Source: a virus
Length of the DNA: 64,000 bases
IMG/VR virus record: IMGVR_UViG_3300039405_000004
Reading direction: 5' to 3' (one strand)
Position 1 is the first letter of the stretch. Each line of letters opens with the position of its first letter. The notes under the pieces are model-generated. The model had not been told where the DNA came from and did no database searches. It saw only the letters and a program-made list of their open reading frames with translations. Below are positions 6,134 through 55,084 of this stretch, one piece after another. The position numbers were made by a program, and so were the translations under genes.

Positions 6134-6337
6134 ATGAACGTGGCCGTGGGCCGGAAGCGTATCAACGAAGAGCAGATGCCTGCGCGCCTCCCGGCCGGGA
6201 CGTTCGCGCGGATGGATGCTGTGCTGGATCAGGGCGAAAAGCGGTCCGATCTCCTACGTGGGGCGGTCGAGCGCGAACTGAAGCGGCGGGAGAAACGGCA
6301 GCCAGGAAAAGGGGCTACCGAGGGGGAGAACGGTTGA
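6134..6337 (+). CDS. Ribbon-helix-helix-like regulator coupled to the transposase
   Basis: GRKRINEEQMPARLPAGTFARMDAVLDQGEKRSDLLRGAVERELKRRE; overlaps the transposase start. Confidence 0.65.
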   Translation: MNVAVGRKRINEEQMPARLPAGTFARMDAVLDQGEKRSDLLRGAVERELKRREKRQPGKGATEGENG

Positions 6338-7620
6338 GCGATCTGCTTCGCCTGAAGCACCTGGAGCACGTCGCCGACTACGAAGAGGGCGACGACCTGA
6401 TCATCAAGGCGAGAAGCAAGCGCCCCTCGCCGGAGCGGCAGTGCTGCCTGCTGGTGAACTTCGTCAAGAATGGCCGGAAGACCATGCGCTTCCGTGACGA
6501 GCCGAACCGGCGGCAAACCGTGTTCATCGAGATCGACCGCCAGCGCTTCAAGTGCAAGGAATGCGGCAAGCCGATGTACGAGGGCCTGCCCGACATCGAC
6601 ACCCGCCACGACATGACCAAGAAGCTGCTCCGGCGCATTCAGAAGGACGCCGTCGAGTGGCCGTTCAATCAGGCAGCCCAGGTCAATGGCGTCGATGCCA
6701 AGCAGGTCGAGCGGATCTTCAAGGACTACGCCACCCGGAAGCTCAAGGGCTACGTGCCGACGATGCCGCGCGTGCTCGGCATGGATGAGAAGTACATCCA
6801 GAAGAAGGCCCGCTTCATCCTCGGCGACATCGAACGGGGCGACATGCTCGACATGCAGCCGTCCCGGAAGGTGCTGGACCTGAACCGCTACTTCGGGGCC
6901 ATGCCCGGCAGAAACCACGTTGAGGTGGTCTGCCAAGACATGTGGAAGGACTATCGCGGCATCACCAAAAAGCTGTTCCCGAATGCCGTCACGGTGATCG
7001 ACAAGTACCACGTTCAACGGACATCCAATCGTGGCGTGGAGGCGATCCGGCGCCTGTTCCAGGGGGACGTGTCGAGATCTGAGCGCATTCACCTTAAGAA
7101 CAAGCAGAAGGTCTTCCTCGCTCGTTGGGAGACCGCGAAGCCCTTCACCCGCAACCAACTGACCGCCCTGTTCACCTTCTTCCCCGAACTCAGGCACGCC
7201 TACGAGTGGAAGGAGGCCTACTACGAGATCTACGACGCGACCTCGAAAGCCGAGGCGAGCGAGCGCATGGATCAGTGGCTGCGGGATCTGCCACCCGCCT
7301 ACCGTCGCCCATTCAAGCCGAGCATCGACGCCATCAACAACTGGCGGCCGTGGATCTTAAACTACTGGGACCACCTCCAAACCAACGCCTATGTCGAAAG
7401 CCTGAACAATCTCATCGGCCGCATGAACATGCAGGGCGTCGGCTACGACCTCGAAACGCTGCGGGCGAAGGCCCTGCTCAAGCACGGCCGGATCGGCGAG
7501 GAGATCCGGCTCGGCATCACCCGCGAAGGCCACGGACACGGCGCGCTGCGGACCCGGAAGTTTATCCTCGGCGTGCCGCTATCAACCCTGGAAGCCGATT
7601 TAGCGGCGGGTACGTTCTGA
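6334..7620 (+). CDS. ISL3-family transposase
   Basis: Zn finger (RFKCKECGK), GMDE, CQDMW, IDKYHV and TNAYVESLNNLI motifs; intact 428 aa. Confidence 0.9.
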   Translation: MSDLLRLKHLEHVADYEEGDDLIIKARSKRPSPERQCCLLVNFVKNGRKTMRFRDEPNRRQTVFIEIDRQRFKCKECGKPMYEGLPDIDTRHDMTKKLLRRIQKDAVEWPFNQAAQVNGVDAKQVERIFKDYATRKLKGYVPTMPRVLGMDEKYIQKKARFILGDIERGDMLDMQPSRKVLDLNRYFGAMPGRNHVEVVCQDMWKDYRGITKKLFPNAVTVIDKYHVQRTSNRGVEAIRRLFQGDVSRSERIHLKNKQKVFLARWETAKPFTRNQLTALFTFFPELRHAYEWKEAYYEIYDATSKAEASERMDQWLRDLPPAYRRPFKPSIDAINNWRPWILNYWDHLQTNAYVESLNNLIGRMNMQGVGYDLETLRAKALLKHGRIGEEIRLGITREGHGHGALRTRKFILGVPLSTLEADLAAGTF

Positions 7621-49298: not shown

Positions 49299-49844
49299 TC
49301 ATTGCGATACCTCCGCCCAGTCGGCAGCCCACAAAAGCTCGGCCGCCGCAATCGGACAGGTAGGCTTGGTGACATTCAATCGATCAAAGATCTTCTGAAC
49401 TTTGCGTATCCCGAAAAGCGCGGTGGAATGATCGCGCTTGCCAACCCGATAGCTGATCTGAGGAAGGCTCAGGAGGGTGTAATTCTTAGCGACCCAGAAG
49501 AGGATCTGCCGCGCCTTGACCTGCTGAGAGAGGCGCCGATGCGAACAGATCTCCAAGACGGTGACACCCGTCACAGCCGAGACGATCGCCGTGAGGCGCT
49601 TCATCGGGAACGCCTTCTGGTCCTCAAAGTCCTCCGGGCGAACGGGCTTCGGAGGGACGAAGCCCTTCTCGCTTACCTTCGGCTCAGACCCAGGCTTCGC
49701 AGCGGGCGCCTTGATCGGGCTTTTCGGCTTGGTAGCAGCCCTCAGATGCGGGCCACGCACCAGGGCAATGTCGACGAGCGGCGCCTTTGGGCGATTGTCG
49801 CCGAAGCTCACGCGGCCGGTCTCAAAGGTGCGAAAGCCAGTCAT
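49299..49844 (-). CDS. Protein with DnaA C-terminal (domain IV)-like HTH
   Basis: KARQI..W.AK..T.LSLPQIS...GKRDHSTAL.GIRKV. Confidence 0.8.
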   Translation of the reverse strand: MTGFRTFETGRVSFGDNRPKAPLVDIALVRGPHLRAATKPKSPIKAPAAKPGSEPKVSEKGFVPPKPVRPEDFEDQKAFPMKRLTAIVSAVTGVTVLEICSHRRLSQQVKARQILFWVAKNYTLLSLPQISYRVGKRDHSTALFGIRKVQKIFDRLNVTKPTCPIAAAELLWAADWAEVSQ

Positions 49845-50078
49845 TCAGCCGATCTCCGCGCCGTTGGCCTCAGTGACAGCACACAGCTCGTCAAGGCGCC
49901 GGGACAGGAGCCGGGCGCGATCGACCGGGATGGCTGTGCTGACGTAGTGCCGGCCGTTGTTGCCGAGCTTGACGACGTAGATGCGCCCGTGAGCGGCGAT
50001 GAAGCGAAGCTGGCCGCCATCCGCCGTTTCCAAGACATGCTTAAACGTCGTGTCGCGCGTGTCAGTGAGAGCGGCCAT
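49845..50078 (-). CDS. Hypothetical protein (77 aa)
   Basis: MAALTDTRD...; its ATG overlaps the stop of a gene restored by re-inverting 50134-51300. Confidence 0.6.
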   Translation of the reverse strand: MAALTDTRDTTFKHVLETADGGQLRFIAAHGRIYVVKLGNNGRHYVSTAIPVDRARLLSRRLDELCAVTEANGAEIG

Positions 50079-50133
50079 CAGAGCGAGCCCCCATGCGAGT
50101 GATGAGGCGCCCAGACGGATCCGCCGATCTCTC

Positions 50134-50384
50134 ACTGGGCGTTCACTGAACGCGCCGGCCGCGAGATGGCTGACCTGTTTATCGCCCGCCTGGTTGACGG
50201 CGACCGGCCCGTTGAGGGTGAGCCGATTAGCTACTGCCGCGATCGGCTGCTCGGCATCAAGGGTTGGGTGTTCCCGCAGGTTCGGGCCAGCCTGATCTTC
50301 CAGGCGTGGAATGCGTGGCGTCGCAATCAGGAAGTGCTCCGCATGAACGTGAATACCCGGGCGCTGCCGAAGCTGGAGCGCTGA
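50134..50384 (+). pseudogene. Displaced 3-prime part of the DGQHR/ParB-like gene
   Basis: Frame reads HWAFTERAGREMADLF...LPKLER and continues the 51982 ORF after re-inversion. Confidence 0.8.
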
Positions 50385-50387
50385 TCG

Positions 50388-51179
50388 ATGCTTCGCGACG
50401 ATTACACAATCCACATCAACGTCGACGGCATCATCATCGGTGATCGTCGCGAGGTCGATCCGAAGACCGTCAAGTACCTCACCGCGTCCATCAAGGAAGT
50501 CGGTCTTCAGCACCCGATCACCGTTCGTAAGGTCGGAGACGATGTCCACCTTGTGGCCGGTCGGCATCGGCTGGAGGCCGTCAAAGCCACAGGAGCCCAG
50601 ACTATCCAAGCCCACGTCGTGCGCTGGTCGAAGGACCGGGCGCGTATGTGGGAAATCTCTGAAAACCTGCACCGCGCAGAGCTTTCTAGGATTGAGCGGG
50701 CCGAGCAGATTGAGGAGTGGCGAGCGCTGAAGGCCAAGGGTGCGCAACTTGCGCACCCTTCTGCCAACGCGCAGCCGCACGATGTTGGCGTCTCGGCTAC
50801 GGCTGAGGAGTTGGGCGTCTCTCGCCGAGAGGTTGAGCGCGCACGCGAAATCGCCTCGATCTCCGATGAGGCCAAAGAAGCCGCGAAGGAGGCTGGCTTC
50901 GCTGAGAAGCAATCGGTCTTGCTCGAAATCGCGGCGCGACCCAACGATGAGCAAGTCGCCGCTGTGGCCGAGATTGCGGCTGCCCGCGCTCTGAAAACCG
51001 AGCAGGACATCAAGAACCGCGCGGCTCAGGATGTCGCGGAATTGTTTGCCACGCATATTCCACCTGACGTGTGGGACATGCTTAAGGCCAGCATCAAGAC
51101 CGCCGACAACGTTAATCTGATCTTGGCGGCGTTCAACAATCTGGTCGGCAATTCGATCATGGACCGGAGGCACGGCTAA
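50388..51179 (+). CDS. ParB-like N-terminal domain protein
   Basis: LTASIKEVGLQHPITVR...LVAGRHRLEA...EISENLHRAELS. Confidence 0.85.
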   Translation: MLRDDYTIHINVDGIIIGDRREVDPKTVKYLTASIKEVGLQHPITVRKVGDDVHLVAGRHRLEAVKATGAQTIQAHVVRWSKDRARMWEISENLHRAELSRIERAEQIEEWRALKAKGAQLAHPSANAQPHDVGVSATAEELGVSRREVERAREIASISDEAKEAAKEAGFAEKQSVLLEIAARPNDEQVAAVAEIAAARALKTEQDIKNRAAQDVAELFATHIPPDVWDMLKASIKTADNVNLILAAFNNLVGNSIMDRRHG

Positions 51180-51306
51180 ATGCTGCGCCTCTCCCACCAA
51201 ATCCGGCCCATGTCGGCCGGTAGCAGCGCCGAGGTGTTCTGGACCGGGGCTATCCCGATCGAGCCTCTGAGCCTGCGCACAGCCCAGGCGGGTCATGCCC
51301 GAGAGA
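51180..51306 (+). pseudogene. 5-prime part of a 58 aa ORF broken by the inversion
   Basis: MLRLSHQ...AGHARE continues as IGGSVWAPHHSHGGSL* on the minus strand left of 50128. Confidence 0.7.
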
Positions 51307-51982
51307 ACGCCAGAACCGTGCGCGACGCGACGAGCTTGGTCCGCTTGCGCTTGCAGAACTCAATACTCTCGGGGATGCCGTCGTAGTGCTCGGCGGCGTC
51401 GACCACCTGCGTTTTGGTCGGGCGCTGATTGCTCGCGTTCGCGAGGCGACCGTGCGTCTTCCACTGCCAGATCAGATTGGCGACGGTGGAGACGGCGTTG
51501 CTGTCTGCGACACCCTCCATCGCAAGGACGTTGGCCGCCGAGCGGGACAGACCGAGGTTAATCGTCTTGACCGCCTCGTCCTTAATGCCGAAGACGATGA
51601 CGACTTCGGCCGGGATGCCGGTGGCGACAATCATCTCGCAACGGTGCTGCCCGTCACCGAGCACGCCGCTCTCGGTCACGCTCAGGCTCTCACCGTTGAA
51701 CTGGAAGCGGCCACCGCTGTTCTCGCGCACCAACGTGTTGATGTGCGACTTCGCCTTCGGCCGATTGTGCGTGTTGCTCTCCAGCAGAAGCTCAGCAAGC
51801 ACGGGGGTCAGCGTCACGATCTCGACAGACCGCCCGCCCGCAACCTTCTCAGCAAGCCAGCGCTTCATCCTCAGGCGTTCGCGCCGCAGAGCCTCAGTTT
51901 TAACCGCAGCGCTCGGCATCTTGTCGGGGTCAACCTCGGCAATTGCCTTGTCGATTGCCCTGCTCAGGTCTACGTTCAACAT
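51301..51982 (-). pseudogene. 5-prime part of a DGQHR-motif (ParB/DndB superfamily) protein gene
   Basis: NRPK...NGESL...LGDGQHR; ends prematurely at the inversion breakpoint. Confidence 0.8.
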
Positions 51983-51995
51983 AGCTTCACCCACT

Positions 51996-52029
51996 GGGCG
52001 CGCCGCTTCGCCGGCCGCGCCCTTTTTTT
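51996..52029 (+). terminator. Intrinsic terminator facing + strand (antisense to the early-right operon)
   Basis: GGGCGCG...TTCG...GCGCCC hairpin followed by T7. Confidence 0.65.
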
Positions 52030-52244
52030 GTCCCGCCGCATCCGCGGTCGGGTCGAAGCTCAGGGTGGAAAGCTCGGGGAGCGAGATCGGCCGGCGACGA
52101 TCACTCACAGCGCGTACCTCACGGCACCGCAGAGGATCAGGATGGCAGCGCCAGGAATGACCGGGCTGTCGATGTGGCGCCAACGGCAAACACACCAGAC
52201 AGAGGCAATGGCCGTCGCCGCCAGTTGAGCCTTGAGGATCAGCA

Positions 52245-52823
52245 TCATGCCGAAGCCCTCTGCTGCTGCTGCGCCGCAATCTCTAGGCGCAGCTTTTCTG
52301 CGGTTGGACTGGACATGAAGAGAGCGACAGCTTGCTCATGAACCGAGCGACGCCGTGCGCGAAAATCGTCTGTTGGGTTCTTCCAGCAGTCACGCCCGAA
52401 TTCTCTGCTGATAGCTCGACCCGCGGCGAGCGCGGCAAGCTGCTCAAGCTTCCATGCGGGGTCGCTCCACACAGATCGCATCGAGGCCTGCCGCAGCGTC
52501 TTCGTGCGGACCTTGCGCTCTTCGGAGCTGTGAAACGTCAGAGAGGACCAATCTGGGATCTTATCGACGCCCTTGCCGCTCTGTTCGACAAAGAAACGGC
52601 GAAAGCGGCCATCAATCTGAAACCACTCAGAGGCGAGGCGGTACTCTTCAAACCTCCCGTGAAGCGCGCGCTCGTCGGCATACGTGCCCGGCCAAATCGC
52701 GATGAGGCGCGTCAGAACCGGGCTATGCGTGCGCACTGTGGCGAGACGCTGATGCGGGTCACGGGCACAGCCGATTTTGGCTACGCCGTTCTGAGCCTCA
52801 ATGATGTAGACGTAGCTACTCAT
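52245..52823 (-). CDS. GIY-YIG-like (T5orf172) nuclease
   Basis: YVYIIE...KIG.A.DP.QRL...E..LH.RF...R..SEWF. Confidence 0.8.
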   Translation of the reverse strand: MSSYVYIIEAQNGVAKIGCARDPHQRLATVRTHSPVLTRLIAIWPGTYADERALHGRFEEYRLASEWFQIDGRFRRFFVEQSGKGVDKIPDWSSLTFHSSEERKVRTKTLRQASMRSVWSDPAWKLEQLAALAAGRAISREFGRDCWKNPTDDFRARRRSVHEQAVALFMSSPTAEKLRLEIAAQQQQRASA

Positions 52824-53065
52824 GCCGCAGCTCCCGTCGACTGCGCCGAACGGACAGGCTGCGGCGCATGAGCCGCCACGAGCGTTTCGTAGGTCACGCC
52901 CGCTATGCGCTTGGTTTCGGCATGCTCAATCAGCGCCTGCCAGTAGGCGACCGGGATGGACCGGCGCCGACGCATGAGTGTGGTGTGCTCGACAGGCTTG
53001 CCGACGATCCTGCCGACAGCGGCAGGGCCTCCGAGAGCGTCGAAAATGGCTAGCACGGGGTCCAT
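52820..53065 (-). CDS. cro: Cro-like repressor
   Basis: IFDALGGPAAVGRIVG...RRRRSIPVAYW; divergent from cI. Confidence 0.75.
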   Translation of the reverse strand: MDPVLAIFDALGGPAAVGRIVGKPVEHTTLMRRRRSIPVAYWQALIEHAETKRIAGVTYETLVAAHAPQPVRSAQSTGAAA

Positions 53066-53074
53066 GGCTATAAC

Positions 53075-53116
53075 CGATACACCACGTATCGGCTGGGCGC
53101 AATACGCCCCGTATCG
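53075..53116. promoter_or_regulatory. OR operators, C(G/A)ATAC-N5-GTATCG
   Basis: CGATAC-ACCAC-GTATCG (53075-53091) and CAATAC-GCCCC-GTATCG (53100-53116). Confidence 0.8.
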
Positions 53117-53123
53117 CAATTCT

Positions 53124-53765
53124 ATGCATGACGGCGGAATGGATACGCCTGCCAGCAGATTGAAGGCCGCCCGCGAGCGCGCCGGCTATCGGAATGCTAA
53201 AGTCGCAGCAGATGCGCTCGGCATGAAAGAAGCCGGCTATCGGCACCACGAAAACGGCACTCGCGACTACACCTACCGGTCAGCGCAGAAGTACGCCAAG
53301 GCGTTCAAGACCACCGCCGAATGGCTGATGGATGGCGAGCGCGAAGAAGAGGACCTAGGGCCGCAGCAGGCGCGTGAGGCCGTTCTGCTATCGTGGGTAG
53401 GCGCGGGCCAGCTCGGGCCAGTCGCACCTATAGAGAGCATTGAAGCCGTCGGCCGTATAGCGGTCGATCGTCTTCCGCCCGGCGACTGGGTCGCGCTCCA
53501 GGTCGAAGGCTCGTCTATGGATCGGATCGCTGTCGACGGCAGCACGATCATTGTCAACCGTCGCGACAAGCGGCTGGTGAGCGGCAAATTCTACGTGTTC
53601 ATCGCCAAGGACGGCGAGGCGACGTTCAAGCGCTACCGCGCCAATCCTGCGCGATACGCGCCATATTCGACCGACCCCGACGAGGAGCCCATCTACCCCG
53701 AGCTTGAGCCTGAGCGTGATTGGCAGGTGTTTGGGCGCGTGCATCGAGTGCTGACAGACATTTAG
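53124..53765 (+). CDS. cI: CI-like repressor (HTH + S24 peptidase)
   Basis: RLKAARERAG...HENG.R; VGAG cleavage site; VEGSSMD; TFKRY. Confidence 0.9.
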   Translation: MHDGGMDTPASRLKAARERAGYRNAKVAADALGMKEAGYRHHENGTRDYTYRSAQKYAKAFKTTAEWLMDGEREEEDLGPQQAREAVLLSWVGAGQLGPVAPIESIEAVGRIAVDRLPPGDWVALQVEGSSMDRIAVDGSTIIVNRRDKRLVSGKFYVFIAKDGEATFKRYRANPARYAPYSTDPDEEPIYPELEPERDWQVFGRVHRVLTDI

Positions 53766-53996: not shown

Positions 53997-54257
53997 ATGC
54001 GCGCCTACTTCGACGTTGCACCCTACGCTGTCGACGAGTTCGGCAACGGCTATGCAGTGTTCAAGGGTATCTTCCGTCTGACGGATGCCTTCGACTGCGA
54101 GGGCGACGCATACGGGCATGCTCACGCTTTCCTTGATGAGGATGAGGCTCAGGCGGAGATCGACGCCGCTGAGCAAGCTGAGCTTGAGGCCGAACGGTAC
54201 GCCATCGATGCAATCGGCAAGGCGCCAACCATCTCTCACATTGCGAAGGCTGCCTGA
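53997..54257 (+). CDS. Acidic hypothetical protein
   Basis: GGAG RBS. Confidence 0.6.
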   Translation: MRAYFDVAPYAVDEFGNGYAVFKGIFRLTDAFDCEGDAYGHAHAFLDEDEAQAEIDAAEQAELEAERYAIDAIGKAPTISHIAKAA

Positions 54258-54259
54258 CA

Positions 54260-55084
54260 ATGGCCAAAACCCGCACCAAGCCTACGAAGGCGGCTTCTCC
54301 AGTTGTGCCCAATCAGGCGGATGAGCCGTTCATCACCTCGTACAAGGGCTTCAATCGCGACCTGACGTGCCGCGGTTTCAAGTTTGAGATCGGCAAGACC
54401 TATACCGTCGAGGGCAAGGTTGAGGCGTGCAGCAACGGTTTCCATGCCTGCGAGCACCCGCTCAACTGCTTCGACTACTACGCCCCGGCTACGTCGCGGT
54501 TCTTTGAGGTTCGTCAGTCTGGCGAACTCGCCCGGCACGCTGCCGACACGAAGGTCGCTTCCGCCAAGATCACGCTCGGCGTTGAGCTTTCTATCGGCGA
54601 TATGGTCGCCCGTGCGGTGAAGTGGGTGTTTGATCAGGCGAAGCCTGAGAACACTGAGCACGCCACCGGGGACCAGGGTGCCGCGTCCGCCACCGGGCAC
54701 CGGGGTGCCGCGTCCGCCACCGGGGACCAGGGTGCCGCGTCCGCCACCGGGTACCGGGGTGCCGCGTCCGCCACCGGGTACCAGGGTGCCGCGTCCGCCA
54801 CCGGGTACCGGGGTGCCGCGTCCGCCACCGGGGACCAGGGTGCCGCGTCCGCCACCGGGGACCAGGGTGCCGCGTCCGCCACCGGGAAGCATAGTGTTGC
54901 CTGCGCCCTTGGCGAGGATGGATCCGCTTCGGCCGACGAGACCGGCGCAATCGTCATCGTCAATCGCGATCCGTTCAGCGGTGCCATCCGGCGGATTTTT
55001 GCATCGAAGGTCGGCGAGAACGGCATCAAGGCTGGCGTCTTCTACCGCCTGTCGGATGACGGCCTGCCCGTCGAGGCTGCCTAG
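54260..55084 (+). CDS. Phage protein with GAASATGxx nonapeptide repeats
   Basis: YKGFNRDL.CRGF.FE.G...GFHACEHPL..F.YY, followed by the repeats. Confidence 0.85.
   Translation: MAKTRTKPTKAASPVVPNQADEPFITSYKGFNRDLTCRGFKFEIGKTYTVEGKVEACSNGFHACEHPLNCFDYYAPATSRFFEVRQSGELARHAADTKVASAKITLGVELSIGDMVARAVKWVFDQAKPENTEHATGDQGAASATGHRGAASATGDQGAASATGYRGAASATGYQGAASATGYRGAASATGDQGAASATGDQGAASATGKHSVACALGEDGSASADETGAIVIVNRDPFSGAIRRIFASKVGENGIKAGVFYRLSDDGLPVEAA
54662..54886 (+). repeat. 27 bp coding tandem repeat, 8 full units plus a partial
   Basis: GCCACCGGG-NNNNNN-GGTGCCGCGTCC. Confidence 0.95.

Follow-up and report, generated by a model that had tools for sequence, protein, structure and literature searches.

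In the window, by which the whole stretch of 64,000 nucleotides that was analysed is meant, part of a temperate phage is contained whose early operon is interrupted by 1,167 bp running in the opposite direction. The question raised by this locus is whether the reversed segment is an error of assembly, the trace of a single mutational event or one position of a reversible switch. The DNA is GC-rich (about 60-70%). The genes of the operon are located on the minus strand in the order T5orf172/MUG113 gene, 47-aa ORF, DGQHR gene, inverted region and 77-aa ORF, after which follow a DnaA_C-HTH gene, a VRR-NUC-like nuclease gene and a C5 methylase gene; genes for a DnaB helicase, a portal protein, the baseplate and a tail lysozyme are found farther along the window. 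Apart from the inversion, the prophage looks intact within the window. Inside the segment the genes lie on the plus strand, and its two ends are bounded by TCTCTC and GAGAGA, as had been stated in the original prediction and was borne out by inspection of the sequence (Table 1). The crossover point may be placed anywhere inside these flanking 6-bp blocks. No relatives of the window at the nucleotide level were found in the phage collection. A scan of positions 49700-53300 revealed no promoter-like sites, and the four terminator-like sites in the same interval, where 2.6 are expected, include nothing usable.

Table 1. Features at and around the inverted segment, with positions in the window (L010 and L011 are related records described in the text)
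Feature	Position	Strand	Remarks
DnaA_C-HTH replication gene	49299-49844		follows the 77-aa gene
77-aa gene	49845..50078	-	downstream of the inversion; homologous 78-aa ORF in L010 and L011
483-aa antisense shadow frame	49845..51296	-	flipped state only; runs in frame into the 77-aa gene
3' remnant of the ancestral 58-aa ORF, detached	50078..50133	-	IGGSVWAPHHSHGGSL + stop; TGA shares bases with the next gene's ATG
Left arm of the repeat	50115..50133	+	ACGGATCCGCCGATCTCTC; perfect TCTCTC at 50128-50133; minus strand codes R-E-I-G-G-S-V of the small ORF
Detached 3' DGQHR part	50130..50384	+	SHWAFTERAGRE...LPKLER + stop; phrog_5931 match; aligns with homologue C-termini
Inverted segment, 1,167 bp	50134..51300	.	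three ORFs restored on re-inversion; sister records have the un-inverted left junction
Intact ParB_N-domain gene, 263 aa	50388..51179	+	antisense to the operon; PF02195, TIGR00180, phrog_3264
68-aa chimeric ORF	51180..51386	+	codons 1-42 (to 51305) derive from the 5' part of the ancestral 58-aa ORF; the rest is DGQHR antisense
Truncated 5' DGQHR part	51293..52108	-	native to ...RTVLAFS, then R-A-stop; start GTG 52108 or ATG 51982
Right arm of the repeat	51301..51319	+	GAGAGAACGCCAGAACCGT; perfect GAGAGA at 51301-51306; minus strand codes T-V-L-A-F-S of DGQHR
CI-like repressor (HTH + Peptidase_S24)	52956-53765	+	oriented divergently to the early operon in which the inversion lies

Re-inversion of the segment in silico restores three reading frames at once. 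The end ...RTVLAFS is fused, in the same frame, with HWAFTERAGRE...LPKLER, which gives one open DGQHR frame on the minus strand (...RTVLAFSHWAFTERAGREMADLF...LPKLER). The ParB_N gene returns to the minus strand, 3 nt past the DGQHR stop. A small ORF of 58 aa (...AGHAREIGGSVWAPHHSHGGSL) is completed, whose TGA overlaps the ATG at 50078. The restored DGQHR protein would have a length of 310 aa when read from the ATG at 51982, which is the length that had been foreseen, or of 352 aa from the GTG at 52108; the latter codon overlaps the stop of the upstream ORF (GTGA) and is the start chosen in the gene call on the Logan contig. Annotators should be warned that the gene calls of 271, 72 and 68 aa at this locus are fragments or chimeras and no true genes.

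Judged by homology, the N-terminal and C-terminal DGQHR pieces are two parts of one split gene. They match consecutive parts of the phrog_5931 profile, the 229-aa N piece at profile positions 10-174 (E 2.5e-37) and the 84-aa C piece at positions 190-263 (E 2.5e-05). A search of 5.8 billion protein clusters gave 38 homologues, mostly of 285-359 aa, the closest of them 55% identical. Both pieces align colinearly and end to end with homologues of 299-334 aa, with zero residues gained or lost, in keeping with the continuous protein of the original prediction. The joint falls at LAF[S/C]|HWAF, inside a motif, LAF[S/C]H, that is conserved in the family, and G-Q-H-R-C is invariant across 30 homologues. 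Among the same clusters the truncated form is found on two contigs, and no full-length version more than 55% identical was encountered. The AlphaFold model built for the closest intact homologue (mean pLDDT 86) weakly resembles the structures of ParB-N, Noc, KorB and sulfiredoxin (best Foldseek E 1.2e-3). Neither fragment matched Pfam or NCBIfam models, TIGR03187 and the Pfam DndB model included, at E 0.01-0.1 or better. Membership of the DndB family was considered and rejected on these grounds; because the curated DGQHR and DndB models are unmatched and only the motif and a weak likeness of fold are shared, the product is called here a DGQHR-motif, ParB/Srx-like protein and not a DndB-family protein.

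The second gene of the segment scores 34.9 bits against PF02195, for which the gathering cutoff is 26.3. Its product is 62% identical to that of the gene after DGQHR in L002; in IMG/VR no close relatives were found, the best being 56% identical over only part of the protein. Five more distant phages (L002, L004, L005, L006 and L007) have a ParB_N gene immediately after the DGQHR gene and in the same direction, which agrees with the expectation that the ParB-like gene belongs in the orientation of the operon. The two genes are separated by 3 nt in L002, L004 and L007, as in the restored window, and L005 and L006 have a 4-nt overlap in place of the gap. In these distant contigs the pair is usually located beside an S24 repressor gene and ahead of a DnaA_C gene. 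Both members of the pair apparently have folds of the ParB/Srx type. DGQHR and ParB_N form a conserved pair at or near the head of the early operon in several unrelated temperate phages, and as a side result the inversion draws attention to this combination of phrog_5931 DGQHR and ParB_N genes.

The history of the left junction can be read from related records. A 24-nt search pattern confined to the outer left flank, a stretch common to both orientations, was compared with public collections and matched L008 (a metagenome contig), L009 and L010 (IMG/VR proviruses) and L011 (an IMG/VR linear fragment); it had no match in genome_contigs. In all four the flank is followed by GGGCATGACCCGCC..., as re-inversion predicts, and in L010 and L011 the 122 nt across the joint show full identity to the restored window. 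The comparison with sister prophages that had been proposed as a check thus gave the un-inverted left junction exactly as predicted. In L010 and L011 an intact ORF of 56 aa (MLRLAHQIRPLSAGSSAEVFWTGAIPIEPLSLRTAQAGHAREIGGSVWAPH...) is followed by a 78-aa ORF and then by a DnaA_C-like gene, and the intact small ORF runs from MLRLAHQIRP to HAREIGGSVWAPH. Because of this intact counterpart the small ORF is regarded as a conserved gene, and the 58-aa frame with its overlapping TGA, claimed beforehand, has a natural equivalent. As judged from these sequences and from the gene order in the more distant phages, the restored arrangement is ancestral and the flipped one derived.

At the right junction the record is of a different kind. 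The pattern from the outer right flank found no match in viral_contigs or genome_contigs, and the DGQHR gene is absent from L009-L011, which are mosaic at this position; the evidence on the right joint therefore comes from the protein homologues. In place of the DGQHR-ParB module, L010 and L011 possess genes for a 582-aa helicase-like protein and a 250-aa protein (L010 6623-9295; L011 11734-14406), and of the 250-aa protein only the last 70 or so residues (...VMDRRHG) resemble the ParB protein. At the nucleotide level L010 and L011 become similar to the window again some 20 nt ahead of the ParB stop (window 51159-51300), at what looks like a mosaic boundary inside the 3' end of the gene.

The flipped joints themselves are present in per-run assemblies. 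In run X1 (per-run Logan assembly) a single contig of 37,468 bp passes across both of them with zero differences; X5, from a different study, has contigs over both, and X6 has a contig over the left one. The evidence on orientation consists of the assembled contigs of these three runs, the soil metagenome X7 being fragmentary and covering neither joint. Only the flipped form is seen in them, as read from contigs, which drop rare variants, and the contigs of X1 and X5 are unbranched through both joints. The idea that the true DNA has the restored orientation and that the reversal arose in assembly or library preparation would draw some plausibility from the fact that microhomology is also used by amplification chimeras. 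The perfect repeat, however, is just 6 bp, much shorter than a k-mer or a read, and the segment is located in the interior of a contig exceeding 37 kb and not at its end. Misassembly is ruled out as the cause, because a k=31 graph is not led astray by a repeat of 6 bp and because the segment lies inside long contigs. Moreover, both joints recur without differences in the per-run assemblies of different studies, at 14-22x word depth, and random chimeras would not dominate a consensus. An artefact of either sort is barely conceivable.

The runs that carry the flipped form show 0-1 differences over 4.5 kb and are probably one strain, so that recurrence of the joints demonstrates their existence in the reads and not repeated events. 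A restored-joint 92-mer from L011 was found in at least 20 runs from at least 13 studies, with none of X1-X6 among the matches listed (5 words sampled); these matches show only that the un-inverted small ORF is widespread and are silent on X1-X6. The phage sequence, which has the flipped joints wherever these were checked, occurs in small contig sets of different studies, namely the rock metagenomes X1 and X2 of 2020 and the organism A runs X3-X6 of 2022. The label organism of one study also has poly-A and single-cell RNA runs, and among the runs listed none of the RNA runs carries phage sequence. The lysogen could be an associate with a wide distribution, or else a strain present as a contaminant. 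In X6 no contig covers 51286-51537 (252 nt, including the right joint) although coverage is about 20x on both sides; the cause may be a filter, a local variant or a gap in coverage.

The breakpoints bear the marks of an exchange between short repeats. The boundary repeat had been described as 6 bp long; its sequence and position hold, but its length has to be extended, as the 6-bp block is the inner end of an imperfect inverted repeat of 19 nt with 15/19 matches, located at 50115-50133 and 51301-51319. Inverted microhomology of at least 6 nt is found at 0.26% of random breakpoint pairs in this window, and a further outward match of at least 9/13, the value here being 9/13, in 0.29% of exact 6-mer inverted-repeat pairs; neither feature is likely to have turned up randomly. 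On the inner side of the crossover the similarity is only 2/13. The left arm is conserved exactly in L008-L011, of which L009-L011 have no DGQHR gene. Each arm can thus be explained by its own gene, with no role as a recombination site, because both lie in plain coding sequence and phages devoid of the right arm have an identical left one. Both joints are exact, with nothing gained or lost relative to homologues or sisters. Since the restored joints match the relatives exactly, both 6-mers must predate the event. An origin of the 6-bp repeat by staggered cutting and fill-in was considered and rejected, each 6-mer being needed once in the ancestral coding sequences.

In all probability, then, the segment is a real and derived 1,167-bp inversion in the early operon of a temperate phage, a one-off event whose product is fixed or at least dominant. 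This had been one of two readings left side by side in the original prediction, a recent one-off microhomology inversion, and it is favoured by the ancestral junction of the sisters, the pre-existing short repeat, the clean joints, the absence of decay and the single orientation in contigs. The ancestral order on the minus strand would have been T5orf172 gene, 47-aa ORF, DGQHR, ParB_N, 58-aa ORF, 77-aa ORF and DnaA_C-HTH. Two unrelated coding stretches, TVLAFS in DGQHR and REIGGSV in the 58-aa ORF, would have resembled each other in inverted form by chance, and a single reciprocal exchange inside the 6-bp block would flip everything between them. Short-homology illegitimate recombination, or a double template switch at the replication fork, may have been the mechanism. 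The event is probably recent, because the detached pieces are still open and still possess the conserved residues of the family.

A single exchange might also have been performed by an enzyme acting on a chance pseudo-site, be it the phage integrase, another site-specific recombinase or a type II topoisomerase. Joints as perfectly reciprocal and clean as these are typical of conservative recombinases and of gyrase subunit exchange, and the exchange took place in a short perfect core beside a partly conserved arm. Such a participation is nevertheless unlikely, as no recombinase is visible in the window and exchange at short homology suffices without an extra actor.

The second reading of the original prediction was a reversible phase switch. 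Programmed in this manner, the segment would be flipped back and forth by a recombinase coded outside the window and using the 19-nt sites, so that the DGQHR/ParB module, and perhaps lytic development, would be toggled. A one-sided 19-nt repeat at the exact joints is non-random, and all detached coding pieces are undamaged, which would fit maintenance by selection. The sfx sites of the R64 shufflon are one-sided and 19 bp long, and the two arms recall them. Inversions lying wholly or partly inside genes, with repeats down to 11 bp, are known as well (bioRxiv 10.1101/2023.03.11.532203). Against this, no serine or tyrosine recombinase was identified among the approximately 57 window ORFs that were scanned (40 compared with Pfam, the rest with PHROGs only), which confirms the earlier statement that no invertase is visible there; the only transposase is of the ISL3 DDE type. 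The similarity of the sites is one-sided, the inner side of the crossover being nearly unmatched, and a degenerate 19-mer consensus finds no copy beyond the two arms in the 64 kb. Both arms are ordinary coding sequence, as described above, and the flipped products are a truncation and a chimera, not functional alternatives. The contigs of X1 and X5 are unbranched, and the restored full-length protein of this phage is absent from all assemblies searched. In a study of E. coli all truly variable prophage inversions were located at tail-fibre loci, beside the Hin-family invertases that serve them (PMC4272514). A programmed switch is accordingly considered very improbable.

Comparison with known systems places the one-off inversion among familiar mutations. 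Short-repeat inversions independent of RecA were reportedly described by Schofield et al. in 1992. With inversions of that type, and with spontaneous short-repeat inversions in evolved E. coli such as a non-variable 24-bp inversion flanked by 8-bp inverted repeats (PMC4272514), the present case shares a pre-existing repeat at both breakpoints, a clean exchange, interrupted genes that lose function and, as far as the contigs show, a single orientation. It differs in its size of 1.2 kb, in a repeat of 19 nt that is imperfect with a 6-nt perfect core, and in its setting, the early operon of a prophage in an environmental GC-rich bacterium, with the ancestral state represented in sister phages. 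It also resembles the decay or 'grounding' of prophages by one-off rearrangements in being a gene-splitting inversion, repaired by flip-back and private to one lineage; here, however, the remaining prophage looks intact in the window and the affected module may be accessory. The Hin/Gin/Cin/Pin serine-invertase switches of the phages Mu and P1 and of the e14 and P2-like prophages are likewise prophage inversions bounded by inverted repeats, but they differ from this locus, which has no adjacent invertase, no two-sided 26-bp sites, no tail-fibre location, no alternative functional C-termini and no mixed orientation in the contigs. Unlike a shufflon served by Rci at sfx sites, the locus has just two arms that match the consensus in 64 kb, and no match to the integrase family among the ORFs scanned. 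The intragenic and partial-intergenic invertons detected with PhaVa, which are defined by reads with both orientations in one culture (bioRxiv 10.1101/2023.03.11.532203), also have breakpoints in coding sequence and acquire a premature stop on inversion; here a single orientation is seen in the contigs, and the relatives mark the flipped form as a derived mutation.

The inversion is a further instance of a well-known type of mutation, and no long-standing question is opened by it unless the switch should prove true. Its value is that of a clean natural example, in which chance look-alike coding stretches (15/19, with a 6-nt core) flip about 1 kb, both the ancestral and the derived state are documented, and prophage genes are inactivated with their sequence fully retained.

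Through the inversion the DGQHR protein is deprived of its last 83 residues, some of them at nearly invariant positions, and ends ...AFS-RA. The ParB_N gene points against its promoter, so that it would be cut off from early transcription, and the small ORF is a 68-aa chimera. The inversion would behave as a loss-of-function mutation of an accessory module. The module may be dispensable, because it is missing in sister proviruses, one of which is rated 91% complete. Crippling of lytic development, as envisaged in the original prediction, may result, and the effect on induction is uncertain. There is a very slim chance that a recombinase from elsewhere in the host or prophage uses the one-sided 19-nt repeats as its sites and flips the segment reversibly, which would then form a heritable lock on the first early genes with polarity on the replication genes; if so, a fraction of the lysogen population would be non-inducible.

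The flipped state also creates the long antisense frame of Table 1, whose ATG overlaps the stop of the truncated DGQHR frame (ATGA, 51296-51293). Open frames of 450-550 aa that lie opposite to real genes are frequent in this GC-rich window, and the 483-aa frame is most likely one such shadow. Its interpretation as a real gene was rejected, as sister phages have the same shadow frame and similar frames are common in the window. Ribosomes translating this frame could occupy the reversed stretch, so that the replication genes would suffer less from polarity; such frames being common here, the bridging would be luck and not design.

Two further loci of the window may be mentioned. The ISL3-family DDE transposase (DDE_Tnp_ISL3 with a zinc ribbon) is coded at 6334-7620, a few hundred bases off the lysis/tail end of the phage. 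A DUF7666 protein at 54260-55084 (plus strand) contains a collagen-like GAASATG[DYH][QR] repeat, and the strand opposite to this repeat is also open, with a GGRGT[LP]VP repeat frame at 54236-54892 (minus strand).
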